NCBI GenBank assembly: GCA_964592405.1
Contig: CAZQBY010000008.1
Location: 1-53,327 of the forward strand
DNA from: an uncultured archaeon
GTDB taxonomy: Archaea > Altiarchaeota > Altiarchaeia > JAFGQM01
DNA length: 53,327 nucleotides
Direction of reading: 5' to 3'
The position numbers were made by a program, and so were the translations under genes. This document shows, one piece after another, positions 3 through 22,551 of this stretch; position 1 is the first letter of the stretch; each line of letters begins with the position of its first letter. Under the pieces are notes generated by a model that worked only from the letters and a program-made list of their open reading frames with translations, was not told where the DNA came from and did not search any database.

Positions 3-230
3 GACAAGGCGGTTCTAGAGGCTATGGCGTGTGGATTGCCCGTGGTTGTTAGGGGGGAGATTTATAAGGAACTCAAGGAGCCCATCTCCTTCAAGGACAG
101 CAAGGACTTTGCCGCTGCCGTAGAAAGAGCTCTCTCAATGAGCAGTAGGGGTACTCTCCGGAGGGAGATTGTGGAGAACCATGAGCTGGGCAGGCTCATG
201 GACATGATTGTAGAGGTATTTGGAAGATGA
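3..230 (+). CDS. Glycosyltransferase family 4, C-terminal part (truncated by window edge)
   Basis: Open frame from nt 3 reads DKAVLEAMACGLPVVV..., the EAMAxGxPVV signature of GT-B/GT4 enzymes. Confidence 0.85.
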   Translation, partial: DKAVLEAMACGLPVVVRGEIYKELKEPISFKDSKDFAAAVERALSMSSRGTLRREIVENHELGRLMDMIVEVFGR

Positions 231-407: not shown

Positions 408-1643
408 ATGGAGATAATAAACCTATCAAAAGAAAAGTGCGAACATTATCTTGAAGATAAACCAATTGACAAAGCCGTTTTATTTCCAGACGCTTTCCTA
501 AAGGACAAATATAAACATTTGGACTATGATATCGCGGTTCCTTCCAGTTCAGTAATTGTATCAGATTCATTAGCACCACAATTAAGAAGCAGAGGATTAT
601 ATTGTAGCATCTCATTATTACGACTAAATGTGGAAAACAGACCCAAAAACATAACAAAGATATACGACATTTTTAAAAAAATCCCTCAGCTTAAGACTAG
701 TAAATTATTATATCGCTTATGTCCACTAAAACACAAAAAGTATGATCTTTCTTTTTTTGAATATATTAAGGTACTCAAAGAAGGACCGGAATACTTAATA
801 AAAAAGCATAGAATAGAGGACCCGGTTATTGAGAGGGTATTCAGGAAAGAGCACATTTCTTTCAAAAAAACACCTCTAACCTGCCTAATAGGAAGACCCT
901 ACCTAAAGAATGATTTCGGGAAATCCTTCGCAGGAAATCATTTCATTGAGCTACAAGAAGTAAATAAAATTTATGACAGGCAAATCTCCAACAGCAATTC
1001 TCTCAATAAGGGCGATTTATTAATAACCTACCACACATCAGGACTGTCATTAGAGATATTCTTACAAAGAAAATATGTCAAGAAGTATCTGAAAAATAAA
1101 AAAGTAGAAGCAATAAAGGATAGAGCTACTGTAGACCGAGTATTGAATGCTCTCAACATAGTGAGGAATTATTCCTTGGCATATACACTAAATTTTTATG
1201 TAATTCTCAGAGATTTGTTTGAAAAAGAATTCAAAAGAAAAAATATTGTCGAATTCATTTTGTATGCTCCACATAATATGATCTCCAAAAAGGGGGACAA
1301 CTACCTATACCACCACAACGCAATCAGTCTCAAAAACAAGCTAAATTTTATAGCAGGTAATTATAATTTTGATTCCTTGATTGTTGCAAAAGGGGACAAT
1401 TCTGAAAGATTCATTGATTCAGCGGATCACGGCATTGCTAGATTTGTTTCATTAAATGAGTCAGACCTTACTGGCGATAAAATTAAGAGGATTTTAGTAA
1501 AGAATGGTAAAATAACAGAAACTTCTATTAAAAAATATTCCGAGCAAGTATTGAATGATTATATTGATCTAATGACGAGTAAGGGAATAATCAAACCAAT
1601 ATGTAGTTTAAGCCCTATAATCAATTATAAGGAGATAAAATGA
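408..1643 (+). CDS. Divergent RtcB-family (RNA ligase fold) protein
   Basis: RtcB motifs in the correct order: FPD(28), GLYC(66), AGNHFIELQ(N177/H178), TYHT(H209), APHN(H289/N290), SADHGIAR(H341), C-terminal LSPIINYK(408). Confidence 0.8.
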   Translation: MEIINLSKEKCEHYLEDKPIDKAVLFPDAFLKDKYKHLDYDIAVPSSSVIVSDSLAPQLRSRGLYCSISLLRLNVENRPKNITKIYDIFKKIPQLKTSKLLYRLCPLKHKKYDLSFFEYIKVLKEGPEYLIKKHRIEDPVIERVFRKEHISFKKTPLTCLIGRPYLKNDFGKSFAGNHFIELQEVNKIYDRQISNSNSLNKGDLLITYHTSGLSLEIFLQRKYVKKYLKNKKVEAIKDRATVDRVLNALNIVRNYSLAYTLNFYVILRDLFEKEFKRKNIVEFILYAPHNMISKKGDNYLYHHNAISLKNKLNFIAGNYNFDSLIVAKGDNSERFIDSADHGIARFVSLNESDLTGDKIKRILVKNGKITETSIKKYSEQVLNDYIDLMTSKGIIKPICSLSPIINYKEIK

Positions 1644-2533: not shown

Positions 2534-3175
2534 CTAGTCTGTTTTGTACGCTATAGTGTAAAAGGCATATGGCATAAAACTGTGATCTAGGTTGCTTTTC
2601 TTAGATACATCACCATAATTACGAGTTATGAGCCATTCTGTGTGTCTGAGTAGGAAGGACAGAAACTTCCAGTAGATTTTTAGGGGTTTCCAAGGAGCTT
2701 TTGTTTGAAAGATAACTCTATCAATGAGGAAGGAGAGACTTTCGCTCGTTGTCATGTCAGTTGTTATACTAATTTTTCCAAACCCGGCATCCGAAAGCAT
2801 CTTTCTTAGGGCGGTATCAGTGAAACGCCAGTAGTCTTGTGGATAAGTGTGTATGGGGGTCATGAAAGGTGTGCTCATTATCAACTTACCGTTTGGCTTC
2901 AATACTCTATGAATCTCCAATAATACCTTTTGAGGATTCTCACAATGTTCAAGAGTATTAAGACAGAGGACTATATCATAACTATTATCTTTTACCATGT
3001 GCATATCGTGTCCATCCGCAACTATATCTGGTTTTGTTTCAGGGTTTATGTTCAAAGAAACCCTATTTGGAAAGAACCCCCTGAGACCTGTCCCAGTTCC
3101 ACCCACATCCAAGGTTTTCGCATTACTAGCTTGTTGCTGTAAGAAGATTTCTAGCTTTTGTCTAGATAGTTTCAT
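2534..3175 (-). CDS. Class I SAM-dependent methyltransferase (Methyltransf_11-like)
   Basis: TLDVGGTG motif I, YDIVLC..TLEH, RVLKPNG, PF..PIH..PQDYWRFT. Confidence 0.85.
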   Translation of the reverse strand: MKLSRQKLEIFLQQQASNAKTLDVGGTGTGLRGFFPNRVSLNINPETKPDIVADGHDMHMVKDNSYDIVLCLNTLEHCENPQKVLLEIHRVLKPNGKLIMSTPFMTPIHTYPQDYWRFTDTALRKMLSDAGFGKISITTDMTTSESLSFLIDRVIFQTKAPWKPLKIYWKFLSFLLRHTEWLITRNYGDVSKKSNLDHSFMPYAFYTIAYKTD

Positions 3176-3190
3176 TATCCCCAGCCTGTT

Positions 3191-4318
3191 TCAATGTTTA
3201 TTAAGTTTGGAGAGTTCTCTACTAATCCTCAGCGCCTTTTTCTCAAACGTATTTTCTCTTGCTTGATTAAAACAACGCTCCCCATACTCTTTGCAGAGCC
3301 TCCCATCTTTGTATAACCTCATAACTGCTTTTTTCATCGACATAATATCTCCCACAGCATACAATTCTCCGGTTTTCCCCGGAATTATCTCTTCGCGATT
3401 CGTCATGGTATCCGTCGCAATAATAGGCCTTTTAGCAAAGAGGTACTCAAAAATCTTAGTCGGAGACCCCCCAGGCCCAGCCCGCCTCATTGGGGCAATA
3501 AGTACATCTGCAGCCTGCTGATACTTCGCAATCTCACCATACTCTACATACCCCTTAAAAATAACGTTATTCTTTTTTACCCGCCTTCTAAGGAGGTCTA
3601 TCTGTTTTTTAGTACCACCAACAATCACAATGCAGATATCATCACTGTCGAGATTATTTGATAATTCTATAATATCACCAACACCCGTATATTCTTTTAA
3701 AGAGCCCGTATAAACAATTAGAAATTTATTTTCTGGTAACTCTAGTTCCTTTCTTAAATCTGTTTTTTTACCAAAACACCTATCAAATAATCTTTCATCT
3801 ACACTACATTTTATAACTATATTATTCTCATTAAGGTGTTTATACTCTTTTTGCAATGCATTTGTTATAGACACTACTAAAACACTTCGTTTAATAGACA
3901 TCTCCCTAAATATCTTGTCTATCCCGCGTCCCCTGTCGGTTCTATGGTTTTCAAATATCAGTTTTGCATTGCTTAATAAAGATGCTATTTCTAGCATGGG
4001 ATATAACAACGGCTCCCTAAAGTACAAATAATCATATCGGCCTTCTACAATCGCTAAGAATGCAAAAATAAAAAAGTTTAATCGTCTGAGAATACCATAA
4101 CCTTTTTCATTGTTCTTTTGAAGTCGCAATGTGAATTTATGCTTAATACCATATTTTTGATTTATATCCCCCTTTTTTGAATCTCTACAAATCAAAGAAA
4201 CATTAAAAAAAGATTGCAGTGCCTCACAAGTCTTTGTTATTTGTATTGAATGGGAAGAATTATTTGGAATAGCCGCAAATGAGACATAAGCTATCCCTTT
4301 CTTATTACCCTTTTCCAT
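3191..4318 (-). CDS. Glycosyltransferase family 4
   Basis: IVYTGSL, ADVLIAP, SPTKIFEYL..KRPIIATD. Confidence 0.9.
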   Translation of the reverse strand: MEKGNKKGIAYVSFAAIPNNSSHSIQITKTCEALQSFFNVSLICRDSKKGDINQKYGIKHKFTLRLQKNNEKGYGILRRLNFFIFAFLAIVEGRYDYLYFREPLLYPMLEIASLLSNAKLIFENHRTDRGRGIDKIFREMSIKRSVLVVSITNALQKEYKHLNENNIVIKCSVDERLFDRCFGKKTDLRKELELPENKFLIVYTGSLKEYTGVGDIIELSNNLDSDDICIVIVGGTKKQIDLLRRRVKKNNVIFKGYVEYGEIAKYQQAADVLIAPMRRAGPGGSPTKIFEYLFAKRPIIATDTMTNREEIIPGKTGELYAVGDIMSMKKAVMRLYKDGRLCKEYGERCFNQARENTFEKKALRISRELSKLNKH

Positions 4319-4320
4319 AT

Positions 4321-5082
4321 TTATCTCTGGCCATTCTTATAGGCCAAATCCTCTCTTCTTATTCTAACTATGTTTGAGGTCAATTTTCCACTCAGATTAA
4401 CCAAAATTTGTCTTAGGAGTCTGTACATACTAGCCACCAGATATATATGTAAATAATATTCCAAATTGATGAAATAGAAAATCACCAAAAGATATATGGT
4501 AATATCGGGGTAAAGAATACCATTAGGAAGTCCCAAAACTTTAGAACCGACTAGTTTATTAAACGAAGAGTGACTTTCTTTGATATTAACTCCTTCCAAT
4601 TTCCTACTGATCCCAATATACAGTTTCCTATCAATTCTTATCAGAATAAAAATTACTGTCACAAGCATTCCCTCAAAAAGAAATTTGCTGTAACCAATAC
4701 TATTGAACAAATTATAACCTATTGCCAAAAACACACTTGGAAAAACCAAAAAATGGTACCATTCATCTAAATACACTCCGATCGCTGAGAACTCCCCTCT
4801 ATATCGAGCTACCTCACCATCACATTTGTCAAATAAAAAACTCAGATACAATAAAACTACCCCTAAGAAGAAAAATAATGCTGTTGGTAAAGAAATAAAT
4901 ATCAATGAAGCAACCCCAAGAGCAATGGAAGAAAAGGTTATGTAATTGGGTCTTATCCCCAGTTTGATAAAGACATAGGTTGGGTATATCGACCATATTC
5001 TATGAATTCTATAAAAAAAAGGTAGGGGTTTTTCTACCTTTCTTTTTTGACATTTTTCTCTCAGTTCTTTAATATCCATCAT
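4321..5082 (-). CDS. CDP-alcohol phosphatidyltransferase/phosphotransferase family membrane protein
   Basis: PNYIT and DKCDGEVAR...G.YLD signature (DxxDGxxAR...GxxxD); hydrophobic helices; ATG at 5082/5079 preferred over TTG at 5160. Confidence 0.85.
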   Translation of the reverse strand: MMDIKELREKCQKRKVEKPLPFFYRIHRIWSIYPTYVFIKLGIRPNYITFSSIALGVASLIFISLPTALFFFLGVVLLYLSFLFDKCDGEVARYRGEFSAIGVYLDEWYHFLVFPSVFLAIGYNLFNSIGYSKFLFEGMLVTVIFILIRIDRKLYIGISRKLEGVNIKESHSSFNKLVGSKVLGLPNGILYPDITIYLLVIFYFINLEYYLHIYLVASMYRLLRQILVNLSGKLTSNIVRIRREDLAYKNGQR

Positions 5083-5216
5083 ATTTTTGTGGGCCAGAGC
5101 CTTCGATTTGATTGTAATTCTCGCTCCCTTTATTGTGATACGTGCGCACGAGATGCCCAATAACTCAGAAAATACACATATTAGGCTTTATATCTAAATA
5201 AAATAAAAATTAGAAA

Positions 5217-6590
5217 ATGTCCACCACATTTTTGAATAAATTCATCAAGAATTTCATTTGGATGCTAACTGGCAGTATATCCTCAACTTTTATAAACTTT
5301 TTTAGCTCATTGATAATAGTCATAAATCTTACTGTTTTTGACTACGGTATGTTAACACTAGCCCTCTCTACCACCAGTATACTATTTGCCTTCGTTGGTC
5401 TTGGGATCGATTCCGTTGTGACTGCGGAAATTAATCAAGAGCGAGGAGCCGGGAGACTGGATAAGGCCAAGAAGATACTACACTCCTTCTCAAAGTTATA
5501 CATCATAATGGGTGTTGTGTTTTCAATATCAATATTTCTTTTTTCTGATGCCTTAGCAGAGCTATTATCTAAACCTGAAGTGTCCGGGTTATTGAAGATA
5601 GCCTCCCTAACAATTCTAATGTACACAACAAAAGCTATCTTCCGTCTAATTTTTCATTCCTCACTACATTTCAAATATTTCAGCATGATGGAGATAGCAG
5701 AGTCCTTCTCTAGACTTGGTATGATTCTCTGCTTAATAACAATGGGTTTATTCAATTTACAAACAGCATTTCTTAGTTATCCACTATCTATAGCAATATC
5801 CACCTCTCTTTCCTCTCTCTTTCTCCACAAGTCCTTATCCATCTATACCCAAATAAAGGCTTCTAAGGAAAACCTTCTAAGGAAAATGATATTTCAACAT
5901 GGCAAGTATGCTGTTATCAGAACTCTATTCAATACCGTCACCAACAATATTACTGTATGGCTCATTGAGTTGCTACTGAATGTGGAAGCTGTGGGCATCT
6001 TTGCCTTGGCAAGACGGATACTCACATTCATGAGAATATTTTTGACCTCATTAGAAGGAGTTTTAATACCAACGATTTCGTATGAGATAACAAGAAACAA
6101 GGAAAGGGTCAAGAGAATCTTCACACGGGGAATTAAATATGGACTTATAGTCTCATCCATAGTGACTTTGTTGGCGATAATATTCATTGTCCCACTCCTT
6201 AATTTTTTGGGTCTGGAGAAATATTATCCCTCTATACCCGTTTTCAATATAATAATCCTGCACCTGATAGTTGTCGGAGCCAGCTATCTTATGAGACCCT
6301 TATTCTTTGCCTTGAAGGCACAGAAGGAACTAACTCTGATATACATATTTGACACTTTCCTTTATTCAGCTCTTTTGTTTATATTAATCTACCTGACAAA
6401 TTCTCCTGTTGGTGCAGCCGCCGCCGTAGTACTGAATGGAGTTATAATAGTTTTTATAAGATATTGGATCTTGGTCAGATTGAATCCTAGTTTAAAGATA
6501 TCCCCTAAAGAATTGCTCAAAATAGACACTTATGATAAAAAAATGCTCACGAGAGTTTGGAAGGGGGTGAAACGAAGAGCACGGGTCTGA
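5217..6590 (+). CDS. Oligosaccharide flippase (Wzx/RfbX, MOP superfamily)
   Basis: 457 aa with many hydrophobic segments; 'L...DYG' after TM1, 'EAVGIFALA' and 'VGAAAA' motifs; glycan-locus context. Confidence 0.85.
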   Translation: MSTTFLNKFIKNFIWMLTGSISSTFINFFSSLIIVINLTVFDYGMLTLALSTTSILFAFVGLGIDSVVTAEINQERGAGRLDKAKKILHSFSKLYIIMGVVFSISIFLFSDALAELLSKPEVSGLLKIASLTILMYTTKAIFRLIFHSSLHFKYFSMMEIAESFSRLGMILCLITMGLFNLQTAFLSYPLSIAISTSLSSLFLHKSLSIYTQIKASKENLLRKMIFQHGKYAVIRTLFNTVTNNITVWLIELLLNVEAVGIFALARRILTFMRIFLTSLEGVLIPTISYEITRNKERVKRIFTRGIKYGLIVSSIVTLLAIIFIVPLLNFLGLEKYYPSIPVFNIIILHLIVVGASYLMRPLFFALKAQKELTLIYIFDTFLYSALLFILIYLTNSPVGAAAAVVLNGVIIVFIRYWILVRLNPSLKISPKELLKIDTYDKKMLTRVWKGVKRRARV

Positions 6591-6635
6591 ACCATTCTCC
6601 ATATAAATTAGAGCGACTTTTATACCAACTATTTC

Positions 6636-7559
6636 TTATTTTTGAAACCAATCAAGTGTTTTTCTCAATCCCTCCTCCAACCCGACCTTAGGCTCCCATC
6701 CCAAGACCTTCTTTGCCTTTGATATGTCCGGCTGCCGGGTCTTTGGGTCGTCCACCGGAAGTGGCTTGTACACTATTTCGCTTCCTGAGCCGGTTATCTC
6801 AAGAACCTTTTTGGCGAATTCCATGATTGTCATCTCCCTAGGGTTTCCGAGATTTACTGGCTCGTTCTCTTTGGATTCCAGCAGCCTGCAGATGCCCTCA
6901 ATCATGTCTGATACATAACAGAAGCTCCTGCTTTGACTGCCGTCGCCGTAGACGGTTAATGGCTCCCCCCTCAGTGCTTGGTTAAGAAAGTTTGGCACTA
7001 CCCTGCCGTCATCCATCCTCATCCTCGGGCCGTAGGTGTTGAATATTCTAGCGATCTTAGTGTCCATTTTGTGCACCCTGCGGTATGCCATGGTCAGGGC
7101 CTCCGCAAACCGTTTGGCTTCATCATAAACACCTCTCGGCCCGATGGGGTTGACGTTTCCCCAGTAGGATTCAGGCTGTGGGCGTACCAACGGGTCGCCA
7201 TAAACCTCAGAAGTGGAAGCCAGCAGGAATTTGGCCCCCTTGGCCTTTGCAAGGCCAAGAGCATTGTGCGTTCCAAGGGCTCCGACCTTGAGCGTTTGTA
7301 TTGGCATCCTCGTATAATCCACAGGACTCGCAGGCGAGGCGAAGTGCAGAACTGCATCCAGAGAACCATCCACCCTTATGAACTGGCTTACATCGTGCCG
7401 GACATACTCAAAGTTTGGTGTTCCTTCCAAATGTTTTATATTATTTCTGCTTCCGGTGCACAGGTTATCCATACAGATGACCTCATACCCCTCTTCTATA
7501 AAGCGGTCGCACAGATGACTTCCCAGAAATCCGGCACCGCCGGTGATTAGAATTCTCAT
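6636..7559 (-). CDS. uxs: UDP-glucuronate decarboxylase (UDP-xylose synthase), extended SDR
   Basis: [56 protein letters not shown]. Confidence 0.9.
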
Positions 7560-8422
7560 TTCAGACTCTTCAAATAACGTTTGAAATCAGGCCCGACTTC
7601 CGGGTGCATGAGCCCAAAGTCGACGATTGCGCGCAGGTAGTCAAATTTATCTCCAATGTCGTAGCGCATGCCCTCAAACTCGTAGCCGTAGATCTTCTGC
7701 GTCTTGAGCAGCCCAGCCAGCGCGTCCGTCAGCTGTATCTCGTGCTCCGCGCCCAGCTTGGTCTTCTCTATCTCGTCGAATATCTCCGGGGTCAGCACAT
7801 ATCTGCCGATTATGCCAAGGTTCGATGGGACCTCCTCGGCCTTCGGCTTCTCGACCAGTTTGTCTATCTCGATGGTGCCGTCGCCCATCTCCTTTCCGCT
7901 GATTATCCCATACTTGTGGATGTTCTCCTTACTGACCCTCTCTACCGCGATGGTGCTGCATCCGCACCTACCGAACACATCCATCAGCTGCTTAGTGCAG
8001 GGTGTGTCGTTCTGGACTATCGTGTCGCCCAGCAGGACGGCGAAAGGCTCGTTCCCTATGTGGCTCTTGGCACAGAGTATGGCATGGCCTAGCCCCAACT
8101 GTTCCTTCTGCCTGATATAGTGTATATCACCCATTTCCTCAAGCCTGCGTATGTCCTTTAAGAGCTCATTCTTGTGGTAGAGTTCCAAATGCCTTTCCAG
8201 TTCAATATTTCTGTCAAAATAATCCTCTATTGCACGCTTGCCCCTACCTGTGATTATCAATATGTCCGTTATACCCGAATCGACGGCCTCCTCAACGACG
8301 TAATGTATAGTTGGCCTGTCCACTATTGGCAACATCTCCTTCGGCTGCGCCTTGGTGGCCGGCAGAAATCTCGTTCCCAGTCCGGCTGCAGGTATGACCG
8401 CTTTCCTGACTCTCTTTTTCAT
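7556..8422 (-). CDS. galU: UTP--glucose-1-phosphate uridylyltransferase
   Basis: [44 protein letters not shown]. Confidence 0.97.
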
Positions 8423-9729
8423 TTTCCGTAACCTATTCCAAAATAATCCAGACCTGCTGATTTAGCCTTTACAGGGTCTAAAATGCGCCTGCCGTCTATG
8501 ACGACATTCCCATTCATCTTTTTCCTGAAGACTTCTGGTTCTACAATATACTCCGGCCATTCTGTCACTATTACGGCAGCTTCTGTCCCATCCAAACACT
8601 CTTCTAGGCTACTGGAATAGGAGATTCTGTCTCCAAGTATCTTTCTAGTATTCTCAATGGCTGCCGGGTCGCAGGCTGATACTACGGCACCGTCCTTCAG
8701 CAACTCCCTTATTATCTTTATAGAGGGGGCCTCCCTTACATCATCCGTCCCCGGCTTGAAAGCCAAGCCAATCACAGCCACTTTCTTCCCCCCAACTCCG
8801 CCCAGCTTCTCCTTGAGGACCTCAAGAGCGTGCAGGACCTGCCGCTTATTGATCTCCATGACTGCCATGAGTAGCTCTGCCTTGTAACCCTCCTTTTCCC
8901 CCATTCTATAAATGGCCTTCACGTCCTTTGGAAAGCAGCTGCCGCCATAACCTACTCCTGCATTCAGAAATCTGGGAGATATACGCGAATCCAGCCCTAT
9001 ACCTCTTGCTACATCAACAACATCCGTGCCGACCTTCTCACAGATGTTGGCTATCTCATTGATAAAGGATATCTTCGTTGCCAGGAAGGCGTTGGCCGCG
9101 TACTTTATCATCTCCGCAGTCCGCAGGTCCGTCCGGAGTATGGGGCAGTCAAAAGACTTGTAGAGTTCTTCCACCTTATCTCCTGATCTCTTGTCCATCG
9201 AGCCGATGACCACCCTGTCCGGCCTCATGAAGTCCTCAACTGCCAGTCCCTCTCTCAGGAATTCAGGATTCATAGCCACACCGAAATCCCTGCCTGCCCT
9301 CTTTTTGGACTCTCTTTCGATTATGGGCAGTATCACAGAGTCTGTTGTCCCGGGCACAACCGTACTCTTGTCGACAACAACATGATAGTTCTTTTTCTTG
9401 GCGAGAGCCCTGCCGATCTCCTTGGAAGCAGACTTAACGTGCTTCAAATCAATACCTCCGTCAGGCGCTTCGGGCGTACCCACACAGATGAAGGTGATAT
9501 CAGATTCCAGAACTGCAGATTCCAAGTCCGTTGTGGCCTTCAGGTTCTTGCCGATGTGTTTCTCCAACAGCTCTTCCAGCCCTATCTCATGTATGGGCGA
9601 CTCGCCCCGGTTGATTTTATCAACCTTCTCCCTGATGACATCAACACATACGACACGGTTCCCCAACTCTGCAAAGCAGGCCCCCGTGATGAGACCAACA
9701 TATCCCACCCCGATAACCGAAATATCCAT
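8419..9729 (-). CDS. ugd: UDP-glucose 6-dehydrogenase
   Basis: GVGYVGL, FICVGTP, KSTVVPGT, NPEFLREG, GYGGSCFPKD. Confidence 0.95.
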   Translation of the reverse strand: MDISVIGVGYVGLITGACFAELGNRVVCVDVIREKVDKINRGESPIHEIGLEELLEKHIGKNLKATTDLESAVLESDITFICVGTPEAPDGGIDLKHVKSASKEIGRALAKKKNYHVVVDKSTVVPGTTDSVILPIIERESKKRAGRDFGVAMNPEFLREGLAVEDFMRPDRVVIGSMDKRSGDKVEELYKSFDCPILRTDLRTAEMIKYAANAFLATKISFINEIANICEKVGTDVVDVARGIGLDSRISPRFLNAGVGYGGSCFPKDVKAIYRMGEKEGYKAELLMAVMEINKRQVLHALEVLKEKLGGVGGKKVAVIGLAFKPGTDDVREAPSIKIIRELLKDGAVVSACDPAAIENTRKILGDRISYSSSLEECLDGTEAAVIVTEWPEYIVEPEVFRKKMNGNVVIDGRRILDPVKAKSAGLDYFGIGYGK

Positions 9730-9805
9730 CGCCTATTTTGCCTCTCAATAAATAAAACTGAATACCGGGTTTTTAATATTTTATCTTCAATAATAGAGGA
9801 TTGGA

Positions 9806-10126
9806 ATGGCCAAAACCCCTAAAAGAGCTACTCCTAGAAGAACTGTGAGAAGGCCGTGGCGCCCGGAAGAGGTTGATGAAGTTGCAAGGATGCTGGGGAG
9901 CAGTCAAAGAAATAAAAGAGTTGGCAGGGGACGGGGAGGAGAAATGGCCCTTTATGCAAAAATGCTGGCTGATATCGATAACTTGTTTAAAAAAGCTGCT
10001 GCTTCCCGGGGGAAAGAGCGTGCAAGATACAGCAGAGAGGCAAGATTGTTACAGAGGGATGCAGAGGCCCTGAGGCTGAGATTAGAGGCCAATAACCAGA
10101 ACTCCGGTGGAATAGAAAAATATTGA
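9806..10126 (+). CDS. Hypothetical basic, Arg-rich helical protein
   Basis: 106-aa ORF filling the gap; GAGGA upstream of ATG; AT-rich divergent promoter region at 9745-9790. Confidence 0.55.
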   Translation: MAKTPKRATPRRTVRRPWRPEEVDEVARMLGSSQRNKRVGRGRGGEMALYAKMLADIDNLFKKAAASRGKERARYSREARLLQRDAEALRLRLEANNQNSGGIEKY

Positions 10127-10182
10127 CTTCATGAACCTATTTTAATACCCAAATCTTCTAATTTCCCGCACTTTTCTTAAGG

Positions 10183-10725
10183 ATGGGTCTCAGACGCGCA
10201 CACTGCTACAGATGGGACAGCCCTGCATACACAAGGGTATCCAACAATCCTTCCGAGTCTTTTGTGACGGGGATACCTGGGATAAAGGTAACCAGATTTG
10301 ACATGGGTGACCCCAACGCCGAGTTTGACATCAGGGTTGACTTAATAAGCAATGAGGATATCCAGCTGCGGCACAATGCCATTGAGGCCGCACGGCAGAC
10401 CTGTGTCAGATGCCTTGAGAAATCCTTGGGAAAGAAGGGTTTCTACTATAAGATACGCGTATATCCACATCACATAATGCGGGAGAACAAGATGGCAACC
10501 GGGGCGGGAGCGGATCGTGTCCAGAGCGGCATGAGAGACTCCTTTGGAAAGCCCGTTGGAAAGGCTGCCCGTGTGAGGAAGGGCCAGATAATTATGTCAG
10601 TGTCAGTCCCAAGGGACAAGGTTGATGTCGCAAAAGAGGCGTTGCGGCGCGCGAATGCGAAGCTGCCGGCTAGGACCCACACAAGCGAGGTCGCTCTCAG
10701 GAAAGAGCAGGCAGGAGCATCCTGA
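10183..10725 (+). CDS. rpl10e: 50S ribosomal protein uL16 (L10e)
   Basis: QLRHNAIEAAR, RVYPHHIMRENKMATGAGADRVQSGMR.SFGKP.G.AARV. Confidence 0.97.
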   Translation: MGLRRAHCYRWDSPAYTRVSNNPSESFVTGIPGIKVTRFDMGDPNAEFDIRVDLISNEDIQLRHNAIEAARQTCVRCLEKSLGKKGFYYKIRVYPHHIMRENKMATGAGADRVQSGMRDSFGKPVGKAARVRKGQIIMSVSVPRDKVDVAKEALRRANAKLPARTHTSEVALRKEQAGAS

Positions 10726-10777
10726 GGAAACACCAATTCTTAATAAAACCTGCATAAACAAAGCTCATAATGCCGTA

Positions 10778-10917
10778 TTATAGCTGAGAGTGAGAGCCAT
10801 CAACTACTATAACCCCCCATCTTCACTGTTCTCAGACAGGAATTCTTCAAGCTGCGGGAGCAACACTCTAAGATTCTCTTTCTCGTTGTATGTTGGCAGA
10901 ACTATACTGAGGTCCAT
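10778..10917 (-). pseudogene. Truncated, frameshifted GT2 (Dol-P-Man synthase-like) N-terminus
   Basis: ATG overlaps the upstream stop (TGATG); reads MDLSIVLPTYNEKENLRVLLPQLEEFL..., and after a frameshift in a G6 run continues VIVVDGS before stopping. Confidence 0.8.
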
Positions 10918-11861
10918 CAGTTGGTGCGGTAGTAATCGACGAGTACTCTAATACCTTCCTCTAGGCCGACCCTTGGGGCATATCCCATCTCCTCCCTAAT
11001 CTTCGATATGTCAGCCAGGGTGTGGGCGATATAATTGCTTATCCTGTTCTCCACATATCGCGGCCTTATGTTTTGGCCCAATGCCTTGTTTATCAGCGCA
11101 ACAACATCGTTGAATGAGTTAGACCTCCCTGTTCCGACATTGAATATATGGGCTCCCCTCCTGTCATACTCCAACGACATCCTGTTTGCCAGCACAACAT
11201 CATCCACATAAGTAAAATCACGAGTCTGTGATCCATCCCCATATATTACTGGTCTCTTGCCATCCAGCATATCCCATATGAACTGGGTTATGATGTTGGC
11301 AAATCTGCCCTTATGTCGCTCCTTCTTGCCATAAACAGAAAAATACCGAAAACCTATTGATGAGATTCCATAAGTATCGTAGTAAACTCTGCTCAGCTCC
11401 TCGACAGAATGTTTGGCTACAGAATAGAAGTTGGGCGGTACAATCTTTTCGGATTCCGAACAGGGATCTTTTTTGCCACCATATATGGAAGATGTTGATG
11501 CATATATGACCTTATTAACATCGAGCTCCCTTGCCAGATCAAAGATGTTTATTGTACCAAGGACCAGCTCTGAATACGGTCTGAAGGGATTTGGATAGTA
11601 CATGGGATTGCTACTTGGCCCATTCTGCAGCATGAAGAAGTCAAAAGGGTTTTCCCTGTGGCTTTTGGTTATAAATTCCTTCAGTTTCTGAGATTCAAAC
11701 ATATCTATTTTCGCAAATTTTATGTTGTCGCGCTTTGGCAGATTTTCGATTTTACCAAGAGACAGATTATCAATGACTGCCCAATCCACTTCAGGTATGG
11801 ACGTAACTATATTGCTGCCGATGAAGCCGCAACCACCAACAATCAAGCCTTTTTGGACCAT
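10917..11861 (-). CDS. NAD-dependent nucleotide-sugar epimerase/dehydratase
   Basis: GGCGFIGS, YASTSSIYG, YSVAK (YxxxK), FRYFSVYG, GDGSQTRDFTYV. Confidence 0.92.
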   Translation of the reverse strand: MVQKGLIVGGCGFIGSNIVTSIPEVDWAVIDNLSLGKIENLPKRDNIKFAKIDMFESQKLKEFITKSHRENPFDFFMLQNGPSSNPMYYPNPFRPYSELVLGTINIFDLARELDVNKVIYASTSSIYGGKKDPCSESEKIVPPNFYSVAKHSVEELSRVYYDTYGISSIGFRYFSVYGKKERHKGRFANIITQFIWDMLDGKRPVIYGDGSQTRDFTYVDDVVLANRMSLEYDRRGAHIFNVGTGRSNSFNDVVALINKALGQNIRPRYVENRISNYIAHTLADISKIREEMGYAPRVGLEEGIRVLVDYYRTN

Positions 11862-11966
11862 GGCTATGTTAGAGCGGATGGGAATAAAAGTTGGGCTAAA
11901 AGCGATTTTGGTATGCCCGCTCCGGTCCGGGAGCAGCCGCCATAGACCTTTAATCCCCGGCTCTTA

Positions 11967-14645
11967 TCAGCCTTCTTTGGCCTTCCACCTTCCCACAGCC
12001 TTGAATAGCTCGCCGGCGAAGAAGATACTGGTAGAGACAATGCCGGCAAGGGCCCAGTCGCCCAGTGACAAGGGAACCGTTTTGAACATCTGCGACAATG
12101 GCCCGATGTAGATTATGGCTATCTGGAGAACTAGGGAGGATCCAACGGCCAGCAGCAGCCACTTGTTCTTGATGAAATTGCGCCCTATAATCGACTCCCT
12201 AGGCGAGCGGCAGTTGAAGGCATTGATGAGCTCAAAGAGTACTATGGTAGTCAGTGCCATGGTGCTAGCCTTGATTGCAGCCGCGCCCATCTCAAAATTG
12301 GGGTTGTAGAGGTAATAAACCCCCAGCATCCCCACGGCTATGACAACCCCATACAGCATTATGCGCTTCAGCATGATGCCAGAGAATATCTTTTCGTTGG
12401 GTGGCCTTGGCGCCCGCCTCATTATATCCTTGTCCTTGGGGTCGACTCCTAGCGCGAGGGCGGGTGCGCCATCTGTGATTAGATTCACCCACAAAATCTG
12501 GGCGGGCAACAATATCGCGCCTTTTAGGGGGAACAGCACCATGCCACCGAAGATGGCCAGGACCTCGCCGATGTTGCAGGATAGCAGGAATATGATGAAC
12601 TTCTTGATGTTGTCGTAGATACCCCTCCCCTCCTCGACTGCAGCCACTATCGTGCTGAAGTTGTCATCAGTGAGCACCATACTGCCCGCCTCTTTCGCCA
12701 CCTCAGTTCCGGTTATTCCCATGGCTACACCTATGTCAGCCTTCTTAAGCGCGGGGGCGTCATTGACACCGTCTCCAGTCATGGCGACTATGTGCCCCCG
12801 GGCCTTCAGGGCATTAACTATCCTGAGTTTGTGCTCCGGATTGACACGTGCAAAGACTGAGATGTCCTCAACCCGCTTCTTCAGCTCGGCGTCACTCATC
12901 TTCTCGAGCTCCACACCTGTAACCACATCACCTTCCGGGAGGCCTATTTCCCTCGCTATTGCACGCGCGGTTATGGCGTGGTCGCCCGTTATCATTTTCA
13001 CATCAATTCCGGCAGTCTTACAGACCGCCAGCGCCTCCTTCACCTCCTCTCTTGGCGGATCGATCATGCCGACCATGCCTAAAAACACAAGGTCTTTCTC
13101 TTCCCTGCCCCCTTCCTTGTAAGCTAGGCCAAGCACCCGGAGGGCAGCATCCGCCATCTCCTCGTTCTTCTTTAGGAGAGTCCTCTTCTTCTCAGGAGTG
13201 AGCTTCACGGCTTTTCCGTTCTCATATACCCGACTGCACAAATCCAGCACCACCTCCACAGCACCCTTTGTATACATGACGGTTTTGCCATCCTGTATAT
13301 TTATCGTGGACATTCTCTTGCGCTCTGAGTCGAATTGCAGCTCAGCTGTCCGCGTGTAGACGTTTTCAAGATCCCTCTTCTTCATTCCGGCTTTCTCTCC
13401 CAGAACCAGTAGCGCTATCTCGGTTGGGTCCCCCATGCCGCCCCCCTCCAAAGACGCATTGTTGCAAAGGACTCCACACCTGACAAGGATGTCAAGGCCA
13501 TCCACAGAACTGGGCTTCACGACCTTGCCATCTTTTTTGAACTCCCCAACAGTTACATAACCGGCCCCGGTAACTTCCAGTTCCTGACAGTTGATATATA
13601 TCTTCTTCACAGTCATCTCATTCTTGGTGAAGGTTCCGGTCTTGTCGCTGCAGATAACATCACAGCTGCCCAGCGTTTCAACTGCAGGCAACTTCCTGAT
13701 TATGGCATGACGTTTAGCCATGCGCTGTGTACCAAGAGCGAGTGCCATTGTGACGACTGCTGGCAGGCCTTCGGGTATTGCTGCGACTGCCAGAGATACC
13801 GCAACGAGGAACATGAACACTATGTGTTCAACTGTCCATCCCCATTTCAGCATACCGACAAAGAACACGATTGCGCAAATGACGAGTATCATGATGCCAA
13901 GCTGCTTGCCGACCGTCTCAAGCTTCCTCTGCAGTGGTGTTTCCTCCCTCTCAGTCGCCTGTACCATTGAAGCTATCCTGCCCAGTTCAGTCTTCATGCC
14001 AGTGGCTGATACTACTGCCTTCGCTTTGCCATAAACAACTACTGTGCCGGAGTAGACCATGTTCTTCCTATCCGTCAGTACAGTTTCTGCTCTGAGAGCG
14101 TCCGTGCATTTCTCAACAGGGACAGATTCACCTGTCAGAGCTGCCTCATCCACTTTCAGGTCTAGGGCCTCAATGAGCCTTCCATCTGCCGGCACGCGGT
14201 CTCCTGCCTCGAGTATTATGATGTCGCCGGGAACTATGGCACTGGTCGCGAGTTTGAGCTCTTTACCTCCTCTTATTATGCGCGCGACAGGCGAAACCAT
14301 CCTTTTCAGTGCTTCCAGTGATTTCTCAGCCCGATACTCCTGCACGAAGCCTATGATGGCATTGAGTATGACTATGATGCCGATGACAATACTGTCGATG
14401 GGCTCTTCGCCTTCCTCCAACGATATTAAGAATGCCACGACTGCAGCTACAATAAGCACAATTATCAGGAAGTTCTTGAACTGGTTTAGGAACAGGGCCA
14501 ACAACGATTCCTTCCTCTCCCTGTGTAACTCATTTGGCCCATACCTCTGAAGCCGCTTGGCGGCCTCCTCCTCCGAAAGGCCTGACCTGCTGCTCTTCAG
14601 CTCGGACAGGGCATCCTCGACCCCGAGGCTGTGGAACTCTGGCAT
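11967..14645 (-). CDS. P-type ATPase, P2A (SERCA-like Ca2+-transporting)
   Basis: TGES, IPEGLP, DKTGT, KGA, TGDGVNDAP; TM Ca ligands NIGE, NLITDG and an M8 Glu; start set at MPEFHS (14645), about 30 nt below a TTTAAAAA box. Confidence 0.95.
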   Translation of the reverse strand: MPEFHSLGVEDALSELKSSRSGLSEEEAAKRLQRYGPNELHRERKESLLALFLNQFKNFLIIVLIVAAVVAFLISLEEGEEPIDSIVIGIIVILNAIIGFVQEYRAEKSLEALKRMVSPVARIIRGGKELKLATSAIVPGDIIILEAGDRVPADGRLIEALDLKVDEAALTGESVPVEKCTDALRAETVLTDRKNMVYSGTVVVYGKAKAVVSATGMKTELGRIASMVQATEREETPLQRKLETVGKQLGIMILVICAIVFFVGMLKWGWTVEHIVFMFLVAVSLAVAAIPEGLPAVVTMALALGTQRMAKRHAIIRKLPAVETLGSCDVICSDKTGTFTKNEMTVKKIYINCQELEVTGAGYVTVGEFKKDGKVVKPSSVDGLDILVRCGVLCNNASLEGGGMGDPTEIALLVLGEKAGMKKRDLENVYTRTAELQFDSERKRMSTINIQDGKTVMYTKGAVEVVLDLCSRVYENGKAVKLTPEKKRTLLKKNEEMADAALRVLGLAYKEGGREEKDLVFLGMVGMIDPPREEVKEALAVCKTAGIDVKMITGDHAITARAIAREIGLPEGDVVTGVELEKMSDAELKKRVEDISVFARVNPEHKLRIVNALKARGHIVAMTGDGVNDAPALKKADIGVAMGITGTEVAKEAGSMVLTDDNFSTIVAAVEEGRGIYDNIKKFIIFLLSCNIGEVLAIFGGMVLFPLKGAILLPAQILWVNLITDGAPALALGVDPKDKDIMRRAPRPPNEKIFSGIMLKRIMLYGVVIAVGMLGVYYLYNPNFEMGAAAIKASTMALTTIVLFELINAFNCRSPRESIIGRNFIKNKWLLLAVGSSLVLQIAIIYIGPLSQMFKTVPLSLGDWALAGIVSTSIFFAGELFKAVGRWKAKEG

Positions 14646-14675
14646 GTTAGAATTACCGAACTGATAATGTAAAGG

Positions 14676-14695
14676 TTTTTTAAAGTTTTTATAAG
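14676..14695. promoter_or_regulatory. Back-to-back TATA-like boxes (divergent promoter)
   Basis: TTTTTTAAAGTTTTTATAAG: TTTAAAAA on minus upstream of the ATPase, TTTATAA on plus upstream of the structured element. Confidence 0.5.
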
Positions 14696-14712
14696 CTCTT
14701 CCATTACTCTCA

Positions 14713-14799
14713 CGGGGAGCAATCCCTGGACGTCCGCAGATTCGTCTCTGGACCCCCCAACACAGCAACTAGAACATGAATTCTTATGCGGACGTCCCC
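14713..14799 (+). ncRNA. Candidate structured RNA (GNRA hairpin plus long irregular stem)
   Basis: CGGGGA-GCAA-TCCCTG hairpin; perfect 11-bp inverted repeat 14728-14738/14787-14797 with inner G-U-containing helices. Confidence 0.4.
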
Positions 14800-16277: not shown

Positions 16278-17156
16278 ATGGACCTATCGGGTGCATATAC
16301 TGCTATTGTCACACCATTCAGTGAGGACGGTTCACTGGATGAGGACGGCTTGAGGAAGAATATACGCTTTCAGATAGCTGAAGGTATAGACGGCGTAGTG
16401 CCTGTCGGGACAACTGGGGAGTCCCCTACACTAACCCCGGAGGAGCATGAGCAGGTAATCGATATAACTGTAGAGGAAGCCCGGGGGAAGGTTAAAGTTA
16501 TTGCCGGGACAGGCTCAAACAATACAAAGGAGGCAATACGCTACACTAGGCATGCAATGGAGGCCGGAGCAGATGCTGCCCTGTTGATATGCCCCTATTA
16601 TAACAAGCCGACTCAGGAAGGATTATATCAGCACTACAAAAAGATAGCCGAGGCAGTAAACATACCGCAGATAATCTATAACGTCCCATCCAGAACAGGA
16701 AGAAATGTGGATGCTGAAACCACTCTTCGCCTGAGCAAGATAAAGAACATAGTCGGTATCAAGGAAGCCAGCTGCAATCTGGAACAGATAATGCGGATAC
16801 TGAAGGATGCACCAGAAGATTTTTATGTTCTAAGTGGCGAGGATAGCTGGACCTATCCAATACTGAGCTTGGGTGGACATGGGGCAATTTCTGTTTCTTC
16901 CAATATTATCCCCAAGGGCATTACAGAGATGATTCACAAACACTTTGAGGGCCATCTTGAGGAATCAAAACAGCTGCACTACAGGTATTTTGATCTGAAC
17001 AGGATCATCTTCATTGAAACAAATCCCGGCCCGATAAAGGCGGCAATGAATATGATGGGCATGCCTGCCGGCAGGCCCAGACTACCTATGGTGGAACCGA
17101 GTGAAGAGAACAAGGCAAAGATAAGAAAGGTGCTGACGCAACTGCAACTACTATGA
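16278..17156 (+). CDS. dapA: 4-hydroxy-tetrahydrodipicolinate synthase
   Basis: TAIVTPF, GTTGES, PYYNKP, YNVPSRTG, GIKEAS. Confidence 0.97.
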   Translation: MDLSGAYTAIVTPFSEDGSLDEDGLRKNIRFQIAEGIDGVVPVGTTGESPTLTPEEHEQVIDITVEEARGKVKVIAGTGSNNTKEAIRYTRHAMEAGADAALLICPYYNKPTQEGLYQHYKKIAEAVNIPQIIYNVPSRTGRNVDAETTLRLSKIKNIVGIKEASCNLEQIMRILKDAPEDFYVLSGEDSWTYPILSLGGHGAISVSSNIIPKGITEMIHKHFEGHLEESKQLHYRYFDLNRIIFIETNPGPIKAAMNMMGMPAGRPRLPMVEPSEENKAKIRKVLTQLQLL

Positions 17157-17968
17157 TTCCGATAGCCGTGTCTGGAGCCTGTGGCCGCATGGCCGGACAG
17201 GTCCTGAGAAGGGCCCTAGAAGACAAGGAAATTACAGTAGTTGCTGCCATAGATGCCCCAGATAACCCAAAGATAGGGATGGACGTAGGAGAGGTATTGG
17301 GAGTTGGACACATTGGTATCCAACTGGCCGGAGCGAATGCTCTGGGGGAGGAACTCCAGAGAAGCAACCCCCGGTTCCTAGTAGAGTTTACAAATCCAGA
17401 GGCAACTGTCAGAAATGCTGAAACAGCGGCAGCAAACAAAGTAGGTCTTGTCATTGGCACCACAGGGCTTAGTGAAGTCCAAACAGCCCGGATAAAGGAA
17501 GTGATTAGGGAGAACGGTGTTGTAGGCCTCATATCACCAAACTTCTCGATATGTGTAAACCTTCTCTTCAAAATGGCGGCAGAGGCTGCCAAGACTCTGA
17601 AGGGCTATGATATAGAGGTAGTCGAAGCCCATCATCGCTTCAAGAAGGATGCCCCTTCTGGGACGGCAAAGAAACTGGCGGGAGCTATTGCAGATGCTGT
17701 TGGCAGAAATCTAGATGATGTAGCCGTCTATGGCAGAAGGGGTATGACTGGGGAAAGAAAAGCAGGAGAGATAGGAATACATTCTGTGCGGGCCGGGGAC
17801 ATAGTTGGCGACCATACAATCATATTTGCTACACTGGGGGAGCGTATTGAGATAAAACACCAAGCCCACTCACGGGATGCTTTCGCCTATGGTTGCCTGC
17901 GGACAATTAAGTGGCTAGCAAAGCAGAAGCCGGGCATCTATGAAATGAAAGACGTCTTGGGACTTTAA
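17153..17968 (+). CDS. dapB: 4-hydroxy-tetrahydrodipicolinate reductase
   Basis: GACGRM, IGTTG, EAHHRFKKDAPSGTA, RAGDIVGDH. Confidence 0.97.
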   Translation: MIPIAVSGACGRMAGQVLRRALEDKEITVVAAIDAPDNPKIGMDVGEVLGVGHIGIQLAGANALGEELQRSNPRFLVEFTNPEATVRNAETAAANKVGLVIGTTGLSEVQTARIKEVIRENGVVGLISPNFSICVNLLFKMAAEAAKTLKGYDIEVVEAHHRFKKDAPSGTAKKLAGAIADAVGRNLDDVAVYGRRGMTGERKAGEIGIHSVRAGDIVGDHTIIFATLGERIEIKHQAHSRDAFAYGCLRTIKWLAKQKPGIYEMKDVLGL

Positions 17969-18033
17969 CAGATGGACGGTTTTTCTTATCTGCCCCTTTC
18001 CTTATTTATCTCATCAGCCTAAAATTACCCAAG

Positions 18034-19194: not shown

Positions 19195-19195
19195 T

Positions 19196-20017
19196 ATGGC
19201 CAAATTAAAATTCACCAAAATGCACGGAACTGGGAATGACTTCATAGTCATAGATGCGCGCAGAAAACAGATAGCAAACCCGGGACAGCTTGCAAAGAGG
19301 CTTTGCCGGCGCCATTTCTCCATCGGGGCGGATGGACTGATACTAATAAAACCCTCCAAAAGGGCCGATTATAGGATGCGCATATTCAATCCAGATGGTT
19401 CCGAAGCAGAGATGTGCGGTAATGGCATAAGGTGCTTTGCCAAGTATTTATATGATAGAAAGATAACAAAGAAACACCTAATAGAAGTCGAAACCAAGGC
19501 AGGAGTTGTCAAACCGGAGATATCTGGAAACCGGATAAGAGTGGATATGGGTATGCCACTACTGACCAGATCAGATATTCCCATGCTCGGTAAGTCCGAA
19601 TCTGCAATAAACGAAACCCTCACACTAAAGGATTCCAAGGCCCGCATAACCGCAGTCTCAATGGGCAACCCCCATGCCGTCATTTTTGTCAATGATCTGA
19701 ATACCTATCCCGTAGAAAAGATCGGGCCGGAAGTGGAAAACCACCCTATATTCCCCAATCGCACAAATGTTGAGTTTGTGGAGGTTATCAACAAGGGAAA
19801 ACTGAAGGTTCGCGTCTGGGAGCGGGGGGTTGGCGAAACTCTTGCCTGTGGGACAGGGGCCTGCGCCTCACTGGTGGCTGCTGTTCTAAATCACAGGACT
19901 GAAAAAAGGGCCGAAGTACACCTTGCCGGCGGCATGCTCACTGTTGAATGGTCAAATAACAATATATTTCTGACTGGACCGGCAGAGGAGGTGTTCAACG
20001 GTGTTATAGAGCTCTAA
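19196..20017 (+). CDS. dapF: Diaminopimelate epimerase
   Basis: KMHGTGNDF, EMCGNGIRC, MGNPH, ERGVGETLACGTG. Confidence 0.97.
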   Translation: MAKLKFTKMHGTGNDFIVIDARRKQIANPGQLAKRLCRRHFSIGADGLILIKPSKRADYRMRIFNPDGSEAEMCGNGIRCFAKYLYDRKITKKHLIEVETKAGVVKPEISGNRIRVDMGMPLLTRSDIPMLGKSESAINETLTLKDSKARITAVSMGNPHAVIFVNDLNTYPVEKIGPEVENHPIFPNRTNVEFVEVINKGKLKVRVWERGVGETLACGTGACASLVAAVLNHRTEKRAEVHLAGGMLTVEWSNNNIFLTGPAEEVFNGVIEL

Positions 20018-20061
20018 GAACATGACACTAAGATGACAATAGGCTAAGGACCACATGTAAA

Positions 20062-22546: not shown

Positions 22547-22551
22547 CCAAG

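Follow-up and report, generated by a model that had tools for sequence, protein, structure and literature searches.

A 53,327-nucleotide stretch of DNA from an uncultured archaeon of the Altiarchaeota (GenBank assembly GCA_964592405.1, contig CAZQBY010000008.1; the whole stretch is called the window here) carries at positions 408-1643 of the plus strand an open reading frame (ORF) whose 411-residue product, P0001, resembles the RNA ligase RtcB. Judged from its sequence, P0001 belongs to a rare, distinct clade of the RtcB superfamily, and in 10 of 10 distinct loci the gene of this clade is linked with a CDP-alcohol phosphotransferase (PT) of one subfamily. We propose, with a probability of about 0.5, that P0001 is an active clade member off RNA, which would perform steps 1 and 2 of RtcB catalysis together with the PT, an orthologous GT4 glycosyltransferase and methyltransferases in a mobile surface-glycan or glycolipid cassette.

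Fold, active site and clade of the RtcB-like protein

The structure of P0001 was predicted by AlphaFold2 from a 96-row alignment of RtcB relatives, with a mean predicted local distance difference test score (pLDDT) of 94.0 and a predicted template modelling score (pTM) of 0.93. When the model was compared with the PDB by Foldseek, all 16 chains found at E <= 0.001 were RtcB (template modelling score, TM, 0.66-0.70; 12-18% identity; E down to 4e-21), including T. thermophilus 2epg, P. horikoshii 4dwq, 4dwr and 1uc2, and human and zebrafish RTCB; the first non-significant match had an E value of 0.062. A look-up in the ESM Atlas agreed with the RtcB fold. The closest ESM Atlas cluster by structure (TM 0.85) is named 'putative RtcB family protein' and has 2056 members, 494 aa, mostly actinobacterial. 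At the sequence level, P0001 matched Pfam RtcB PF01139 at E 3.5e-15 and 56.6 bits (cut-off 27), residues 41-408 lying on profile positions 48-425 of 426, and matched solved RtcB structures at an E value of about 1e-5 around the GNHF...HT segment. Scores with the NCBIfam RtcB models were far under their cut-offs (45 bits versus 407 for NF007153, 27 bits versus 271.8 for TIGR03073). By its model, then, P0001 is an RtcB-fold protein, as the original prediction had it.

The same genome holds a canonical RtcB paralogue, P0002 (contig C7:7249-8535, equivalent to L001:1306-2790; 494 aa from GTG; 547 bits with Pfam RtcB), from whose alignment with P0001 the active-site residues were read. Asp28, Cys66 (in SRGLYC), Asn177-His178, Glu181, His209-Thr210, His289-Asn290, Ser323, His341 (in SADHGIAR) and Lys408 are retained, while GxDxNC(G) is altered to SRGLYC (Asp to Gly63), HxGSR to HTSGL, LRKGST to YHHNAI, GGTMG to AGNYN, and [S/C]HG to DHG. 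Every motif that had been listed for this protein beforehand, kept or altered, was found again in this comparison. In a family alignment of P0001 with 20 full-length relatives (393-446 aa, 23-39% identity), Cys66, Asn177-His178, Glu181, His209, His289 and His341 are invariant in all 21 rows, and Asp28 and Lys408 are present in at least 90%; in the wider alignment of relatives, all 96 rows have Glu181.

The roles of these positions are known from the P. horikoshii enzyme (PhoRtcB). According to the available text of PMC9745838, the first metal (M1) is bound by His234, His329 and Cys98 and the second (M2) by Cys98, Asp95 and His203; His404 is the nucleophile, Asn202 touches the GTP phosphates, and the guanine is read at N1/N2 by Glu206 and at O6 by Lys480. 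PhoRtcB Cys98, Asn202-His203, Glu206, His234, His329, His404 and Lys480 align with Cys66, Asn177-His178, Glu181, His209, His289, His341 and Lys408 of P0001. When the PhoRtcB roles are mapped onto this alignment, the whole M1 set (Cys66, His209, His289, invariant in 21 of 21 rows), half of the M2 set, the putative nucleophile (His341, of the DHG motif, invariant in the family) and both predicted guanine contacts (Glu181, Lys408) are kept; at M2, His178 is present but Gly63 occupies the position of Asp95. The alignment thus supports an intact nucleotidylation core in P0001.

The 5'-OH side of the active site is different. As described in the available part of PMC8051266, Arg238 of PhoRtcB (Arg189 of E. 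coli RtcB) grips the 5'-OH strand by its first two phosphates, and the E. coli R189A substitution slowed sealing 200-fold but RNAppG formation only 3-fold. The equivalent residue in P0001 is Leu213, and Arg is found there in 0 of 21 family rows; in the 96-row alignment, 15 of the 18 canonical rows have this Arg, against 2 of the 78 remaining rows. The Arg of HGxxR is retained in P0001 (R345), though in only 3 of 21 family rows, and the family has conserved basic residues of its own, K32, K34, R62 and R302 (His in P0001). The original prediction that the basic RNA-contacting residues are missing needs correction on these points.

An Asp95 equivalent was seen in no row classed by motif as belonging to the family of P0001. 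It is present in 18 rows of the 96-row alignment and lacking in 78; Asp stands immediately in front of the nucleophile His in 64 of the latter and in none of the former, a covariation that is confounded by relatedness. Asp340 of P0001 is a candidate for a replacement M2 ligand. In the same alignment, Lys32 and the loss of the Arg238 equivalent travel with the Asp95-less state. Several Asp95-less groups have lengths of 440-490 aa, and both that carry a source organism name are from bacteria of the Candidate Phyla Radiation (CPR). The motif changes by themselves were rejected as proof of a non-RNA role, since Asp95 loss is common to many RtcB relatives.

Relatives of P0001 are few. A word-based protein search returned only P0001 itself among 6573 candidates, and a HMMER scan of 1.84 billion cluster representatives gave 132 proteins at E <= 1e-3, 14 of them (P0001 included) at E <= 1e-30; the best relative has 412 aa and 39% identity. 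The family is marked by the motifs PDxxxKxKY, IPSS, YPQ(F)RSRG(I)NCGM, GGNHFxExQ, HT, HN, VYRHNA, DHGxG and LxPxxNxK. In a quick FastTree tree of the 96 rows, with local Shimodaira-Hasegawa (SH)-like supports and an uneven sample of RtcB diversity made up only of matches to P0001, the rows with family motifs fell in one clade of 31 (SH-like 99) and the 18 canonical rows in another (support 94). The few family members with a source are named 'tRNA-splicing ligase RtcB' or 'hypothetical protein'. A family profile scored 436 bits with the RtcB-like gene and 97 bits with the canonical RtcB of the same genome. Searched at near lengths, it gave at least 4 matches among 8000 candidates scored; among longer proteins it found two intein-bearing RtcBs only and no fusion with a PT, which is weak evidence.

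Linkage with a phosphotransferase subfamily

Further loci were searched in the GTDB species genomes and in JGI metagenome contigs by two peptide patterns; because these patterns were taken from the RtcB-like protein only, neighbouring genes played no role in locus selection. Thirteen loci were recovered, of which 10 are distinct when pairs with identical profile scores (L008/L009, L010/L011, L005/L015) are counted once, and they include metagenome-assembled genomes (MAGs) labelled Saccharibacteria, Gammaproteobacteria, Desulfobacula, Nealsonbacteria and Parcubacteria. The RtcB-like gene is directly followed, on its own strand, by the gene for a PT of a single PF01066 subfamily (251-271 aa, 169-346 bits) in 8 of the 10 loci; the two genes overlap or are separated by a gap of at most 9 nt. 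A 132-aa GNAT ORF stands between the two genes in L014. In L007 the RtcB-like gene (in three pieces) and the PT gene (in two) are fragmented but adjacent, and most of this 21-kb long-read contig is likewise broken, so that long-read assembly error is a more likely cause than decay of those two genes. Compared with its 69%-identical relative in L006, the family member at L014:9950-11466 (373 aa) lacks about 40 residues behind the DHG motif.

In the window, the PT of this subfamily (about 253 aa; CDP-OH_P_transf 39.1 bits, cut-off 22) lies at 4321-5082 on the minus strand; its start at 5082 was picked from the alignment, the frame being open to a TTG at 5160. With a profile of the RtcB-linked PTs it scored 320 bits, compared with 30.5 bits for the window's other PT (22552-23172); the PF01066 partners in L003-L006 stand at 30-42 bits. 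This dedicated subfamily, following the RtcB-like gene in the related loci, is the decisive partner, and it had been overlooked in the original prediction.

The linkage extends to the genes beyond the PT. A GT4 gene follows the PT in L003, L004, L006, L008, L012, L014 and the window, and these PT-adjacent GT4s are mutual best cross-locus matches in 7 of 7. The gene order in L004 is RtcB-like, PT, GT4, methyltransferase, methyltransferase, and on the minus strand of the window it is PT, GT4, methyltransferase, methyltransferase. Other neighbours in the loci are GT4, GT2 and GT9 glycosyltransferases, methyltransferases, Wzx, Wzy-like proteins, a DegT aminotransferase, RmlC, epimerases, AsnB, GNAT and radical SAM proteins. 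It can be seen that the homologues lie in glycosylation neighbourhoods in all 10 distinct loci and not in random contexts. Pairwise identities among the loci range over 25-69% for the RtcB-like protein and 25-61% for the PT and are correlated (r 0.88 over 45 non-independent pairs). A complex prediction from the RtcB-like and PT alignments gave a score of 0.00, which is evidence for neither side.

No Archease, LigT or RtcA/RtcR context was present in the first 12 kb of the window or in the 10 distinct loci. A profile of non-canonical RtcB gave two matches in 200 Patescibacteria genomes. One of them, at L042:391-2906 (minus strand), is a canonical-type RtcB lying beside a LigT-like 2H phosphoesterase and Archease; the same method therefore recovers an RNA-repair context where one is present. 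The other, at L041:7061-8569 (minus strand), is a different non-canonical RtcB-like protein of 502 aa, located between a GT4 gene and a thymidylate-kinase-like P-loop gene in a neighbourhood (4671-13028) that has a Wzx/MurJ-type flippase and a second GT4 but no PT. It has Lys32, keeps the Asp95 equivalent, has no Arg238 equivalent, and shows RSN for RKG and Pro before the nucleophile His; RtcB may here have been recruited to glycan chemistry a second time, independently.

The coupled PTs depart from the usual signature of their family, D1xxD2GxxAR..G..D3xxxD4. In the window PT, D85, D88, G89, A92-R93, G102 and D106 are present and the fourth Asp is His110. The same change (DxxDGxxAR..G..D...H) was found in 10 of 10 RtcB-linked PTs, as well as in the related PTs of loci L031-L035; Asp is kept in L036-L038 and in the window's second PT. 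In M. tuberculosis PgsA1, the fourth Asp binds metal and is presumed to act as the catalytic base, according to the available text of PMC6506517.

Loci L031-L038 came from a scan of 400 Patescibacteria genomes with the partner-PT profile, which gave 10 matches at E <= 1e-12 (315 bits for the locus already known, at most 113 bits for the others). None of these eight fetched PT loci has an RtcB-like gene, and in 7 of the 8 a nucleotidyltransferase is adjacent or fused to the PT. L031-L034 have a CTP_transf_like protein of 328-361 aa, directly upstream of the PT or overlapping it; since three of these proteins are 82-88% identical to one another and that of L033 is 60% identical to them, they amount to about two lineages. 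In L035 an NTP_transf_3 gene lies upstream of the PT and after an Fe-alcohol dehydrogenase gene; NTP_transf_3 is fused to the N-terminus of the PT in L036, and an NTP_transf_3-like gene lies directly downstream of the PT in L038. L037 has a methyltransferase in the place of the nucleotidyltransferase. No cytidylyltransferase was found by Pfam among the ORFs of the RtcB-like loci or the window, where local profiles of the two cytidylyltransferase types gave only the window GalU, at 26.9 bits. P0001 itself had no match to PF01467 (CTP_transf_like) or PF12804 (NTP_transf_3) in a Pfam scan and is not a member of these families. Thus the neighbour of this PT subfamily is either a cytidylyltransferase or an RtcB-like gene. 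The presence of cytidylyltransferases beside the nearest PT relatives points to a role of the RtcB-like protein in the synthesis of the donor, a nucleoside diphosphate (NDP)-activated phospho-alcohol.

Proposed reaction and competing explanations

A cytidylyltransferase converts a phosphomonoester X-P and CTP to X-pp-C, and in the CDP-alcohol phosphotransferase reaction a hydroxyl attacks the activated phosphate with release of CMP. The RtcB pathway has a similar logic: GTP forms a His-GMP adduct, GMP is transferred to the 3'-phosphate to give N(3')pp(5')G, and the 5'-OH attacks while GMP leaves; the available part of PMC8051266 also describes that the enzyme can stop at the second step, a DNA 3'-phosphate being capped to stable DNAppG. 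For P0001 we propose that step 1 would form a covalent His341-nucleoside monophosphate (NMP) from a nucleoside triphosphate (NTP), probably GTP. GTP and GDP-X are favoured over CTP and CDP-X because the guanine contacts Glu181 and Lys408 are kept. In step 2, the NMP would be moved onto a phosphomonoester X-P to give X-P-P-nucleoside, with the same net reaction as for a cytidylyltransferase; X-P may be the phosphate of a small polyol, of an amino-alcohol or of a sugar, perhaps after glycosylation by the GT4. The equivalent of step 3 would fall to the PT, where an acceptor hydroxyl would attack the activated phosphate and the NMP would leave, yielding a phosphodiester-linked decoration or lipid anchor. 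This division of steps is suggested because the nucleotidylation core is kept, the 5'-OH clamp is lost, the coupling to the PT is tight, and cytidylyltransferases stand beside the nearest PTs. The more specific version, that the RtcB-like enzyme makes a GDP-linked phospho-alcohol via His-GMP, that the His-variant PT uses this donor and that the cytidylyltransferase has been displaced, is held more tentatively.

Several observations weigh against the proposal that P0001 supplies an activated donor to the PT. In the window itself the RtcB-like gene does not adjoin the PT gene but lies 2.7 kb from it on the opposite strand. At three columns that are almost invariant in its family, P0001 has a different residue (G67S, shared with P0003; M68I; R302H), and the loss of Asp95 could impair NTP chemistry unless another residue compensates. 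No X-P-making gene (kinase or dehydrogenase) is conserved in the module, and the absence of a cytidylyltransferase is also compatible with a PT that uses the general CDP-lipid pool. We know of no precedent for a PT of the CDP-alcohol type using a GDP-linked donor. Finally, the number of loci is small, all of them are from MAGs or metagenome contigs, and some of their ORFs (L005:1464-3203, L005:2-961 and others) have no family.

The same residues could also make P0001 a full phosphodiester ligase for a glycan or lipid: a PT or GT4 product ending in a phosphomonoester would be guanylylated by the RtcB-like protein and joined by it to a sugar or polyol hydroxyl. All residues of steps 1 and 2 are kept, as is Asn177; its counterpart in PhoRtcB, Asn202, holds the 5'-OH that attacks. 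Among NCBIfam models, the window PT scored best with archaetidylinositol-phosphate synthase and phosphatidylinositol phosphate (PIP) synthase (44 and 36 bits, far under the cut-offs), which make phosphate-ended products, and the RtcB-like protein of L041, of a different lineage, is flanked by a GT4 and a P-loop kinase-like gene with no PT. However, the cytidylyltransferase beside the closest PT relatives, directly upstream in L031-L035, is of a soluble type and speaks for donor synthesis; the Arg for positioning the attacking strand is missing, though this says little about a hydroxyl outside nucleic acids. We give such a ligase a low probability but keep it as a live rival. The phosphodiester or phospho-modification role first predicted for P0001 is in keeping with the nucleotidylation core and the glycan context, but any phosphodiester is more likely to be made by the PT.

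It is improbable that P0001 is a scaffold without catalytic activity, or that its gene is decaying and travels with the cassette as a passenger. The lost Asp95 and the three substitutions mentioned above could be taken in this sense; yet the frame is intact, all 21 invariant family columns are kept, the AlphaFold2 model is confident, and the family persists in bacteria and an archaeon with correlated divergence of RtcB-like protein and PT. Very improbable, too, is a phosphatase or hydrolase acting on the PT product through a binuclear metal site, by analogy with the phosphatidylglycerophosphate (PGP), PIP and archaetidylinositol phosphate (AIP) phosphatases, which act after synthases of this kind. 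The metal-binding Cys/His set is kept with one ligand changed, and canonical RtcB has a hydrolytic step from RNA>p to RNAp in the available text of PMC8051266; but Glu181, Lys408 and the His nucleophile are conserved in the family and would not be needed by a plain hydrolase, and the displacement pattern with cytidylyltransferases also speaks against it. Least probable is an ordinary RNA/DNA repair ligase or capping enzyme in an incidental glycan context, since, although P0001 is an RtcB-superfamily member and capping activities occur among RtcB paralogues, PT linkage was found in 10 of 10 distinct loci without the Archease, LigT or RtcA neighbours seen for canonical L042, the 5'-OH-strand Arg is lost, the archaeon has a separate canonical RtcB, and in the five bacterial genomes with L003-L007, which are incomplete MAGs, the RtcB-like gene is the only RtcB-family match.

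The proposed enzyme can be compared with four known systems. With canonical RtcB (P. horikoshii, E. coli, human RTCB), P0001 shares the fold, the Pfam family, the Cys/His ligands, the His nucleophile, the Asn-His pair and the guanine-contact Glu/Lys. It differs in length (411 aa versus about 480-500, the first ~47 profile positions being absent) and by its 12-18% identity; it has Gly at the Asp95 position of M2, its family has HRKG replaced by Y(R/H)HN and [S/C]HG..R by DHG and no Arg238, and its context is one of glycan genes rather than Archease, LigT or RtcA. M. xanthus RtcB3 reportedly caps 5'-phosphates (Maughan and Shuman 2015). Guanylylation of a phosphomonoester as the end product, as proposed here, resembles the formation of DNA3'pp5'G by E. 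coli RtcB in the available part of PMC8051266; the capping RtcBs act on nucleic-acid ends, whereas a non-nucleic-acid phosphomonoester for P0001 is suggested by context alone.

Pairs and fusions of a cytidylyltransferase with a PT include TagD- or IspD-like enzymes with a PT and fusions of the IPCT-DIPPS type. In these, the activating enzyme is directly upstream of the PT or fused to it, as in L031-L036, and the net reactions proposed here would be the same (X-P + NTP to NDP-X + PPi, then transfer of X-P to a hydroxyl). The differences lie in the RtcB fold and proposed covalent His-NMP of P0001, against a Rossmann-like enzyme, and in the nucleotide, which from Glu181/Lys408 is probably G. A fourth comparison is the RtcB2-PrfH ribosome-repair module, in which, as described in the available text of PMC13166195, an RtcB paralogue is likewise locked to a specific partner gene; P0001 falls far short of the RtcB2 model TIGR03073, and its partners are PT and GT4, not a release-factor homologue.

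The low-GC cassette, its genome and the meaning of the finding

The genome holding the window (contig C8) has 1.13 Mb in 22 contigs and is 87% complete with 0.35% contamination. The gene content of the window is archaeal: it includes ribosomal protein L10e and DUF655, and the gene of a CDP-alcohol phosphotransferase lies next to that of an inositol-1-phosphate synthase. ORF starts were those of a simple ORF caller. The RtcB-like gene (ATG start, GC 0.322) is stop-rich throughout on the antisense in the same phase. It is convergent with a minus-strand operon of PT, GT4 and methyltransferase genes: the GT4 (375 aa, 3191-4318; Glycos_transf_1 82.9 bits) is an orthologue of the PT-adjacent GT4s, and the S-adenosylmethionine-dependent methyltransferase after it (213 aa, 2534-3175; Methyltransf_11 52.6 bits) is syntenic with the one after the GT4 in L004 (L004:9848-10477; 38% identity over 212 aa). 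The operon ends with a methyltransferase-like ORF (243 aa, 1802-2533; GC 0.335) that has no Pfam or NCBIfam family; BLASTP related it to the neighbouring methyltransferase (E 1e-9, 25.5% over 141 aa) and also to a methyltransferase of L014. A Wzx/MOP-type flippase (457 aa, 5217-6590, plus strand; Polysacc_synt 80 bits; GC 0.372) is the last cassette gene, scoring 54.6 bits with the NCBIfam MOP flippase model, under its 273-bit cut-off.

Outside the cassette, the contig start cuts a glycosyltransferase to its 3' end (74 aa, 3-225, plus strand; GC 0.52), whose scores (Glyco_trans_1_4 22.9 bits, Glycos_transf_1 20 bits) are below cut-offs because the fragment has only 74 aa. Beyond the flippase, at 6636-9729 on the minus strand, lie genes for an NDP-sugar epimerase/dehydratase, GalU and UDP-glucose dehydrogenase (Pfam and NCBIfam; GC 0.50-0.52), GalU scoring 388.8 bits with TIGR01099, above the 326.8 cut-off. 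The glycan-gene neighbours named in the original prediction (GT4, methyltransferases, CDP-alcohol phosphotransferase and flippase) were as stated.

The six cassette genes have 32-39% GC, compared with 50-54% in the flanking genes and 46% in the whole window. In 40 related genomes, from the same genus to the same class, the family profile reached a maximum of 117 bits, with no match above the level of canonical RtcB, and for this reason the cassette looks imported. Three runs with the label hydrothermal vent metagenome, which belong to three coded studies, had contigs with 57-93% of the sampled words of the cassette; the source sample itself may be among these runs. Contigs of four DNA runs showed zero differences from 408-1643, a few parts being without cover. 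At window positions 1194-1229, extra contigs in 4 of 4 runs matched only about 35 nt of the RtcB-like ORF and then diverged, and a depth spike in the bin 1120-1283 arises from these matches, which are probably a short AT-rich word common to other organisms. A scan of the window for sigma-70 promoters and terminators gave no excess over shuffles, the sigma-70 models being ill-suited to an archaeon, and an Rfam scan gave zero matches.

Elsewhere in the window there are a P-type cation ATPase gene (11967-14768, minus strand), a diaminopimelate/lysine operon (16278-21285, plus strand: DapA, DapB, aminotransferase, DapF, LysA-like) and, at 21458-23172 on the plus strand, a myo-inositol-1-phosphate synthase gene followed by the second PT, which has the canonical fourth Asp. 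The synthase and the second PT probably serve an inositol phospholipid.

The roles described for RtcB in the available parts of PMC10630183 and PMC8051266 are tRNA splicing, RNA repair, the unfolded-protein response, rRNA repair and DNA capping, and the 2023 review (PMC10630183), in the portion available, describes nucleic-acid roles only. A full-text literature search, in a collection lacking most subscription journals, found no RtcB role in glycan or CDP-alcohol pathways, which agrees with the original view that the chemistry is undescribed. If the proposal is true, the RtcB-like protein would have the first RtcB substrate outside nucleic acids, extending the chemistry of the family to small-molecule or glycan phosphates, and a soluble and a membrane enzyme would share the three steps of RtcB ligation between them. 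A third, unrelated route to NDP-activated alcohols would be added, and a role would be given to a module that moves among CPR bacteria, Proteobacteria, Desulfobacterota and an archaeon with a hydrothermal-vent label. Beyond this clade, the covariation of Asp95 with Asp340 hints at a rearranged metal site in a large part of the RtcB superfamily.

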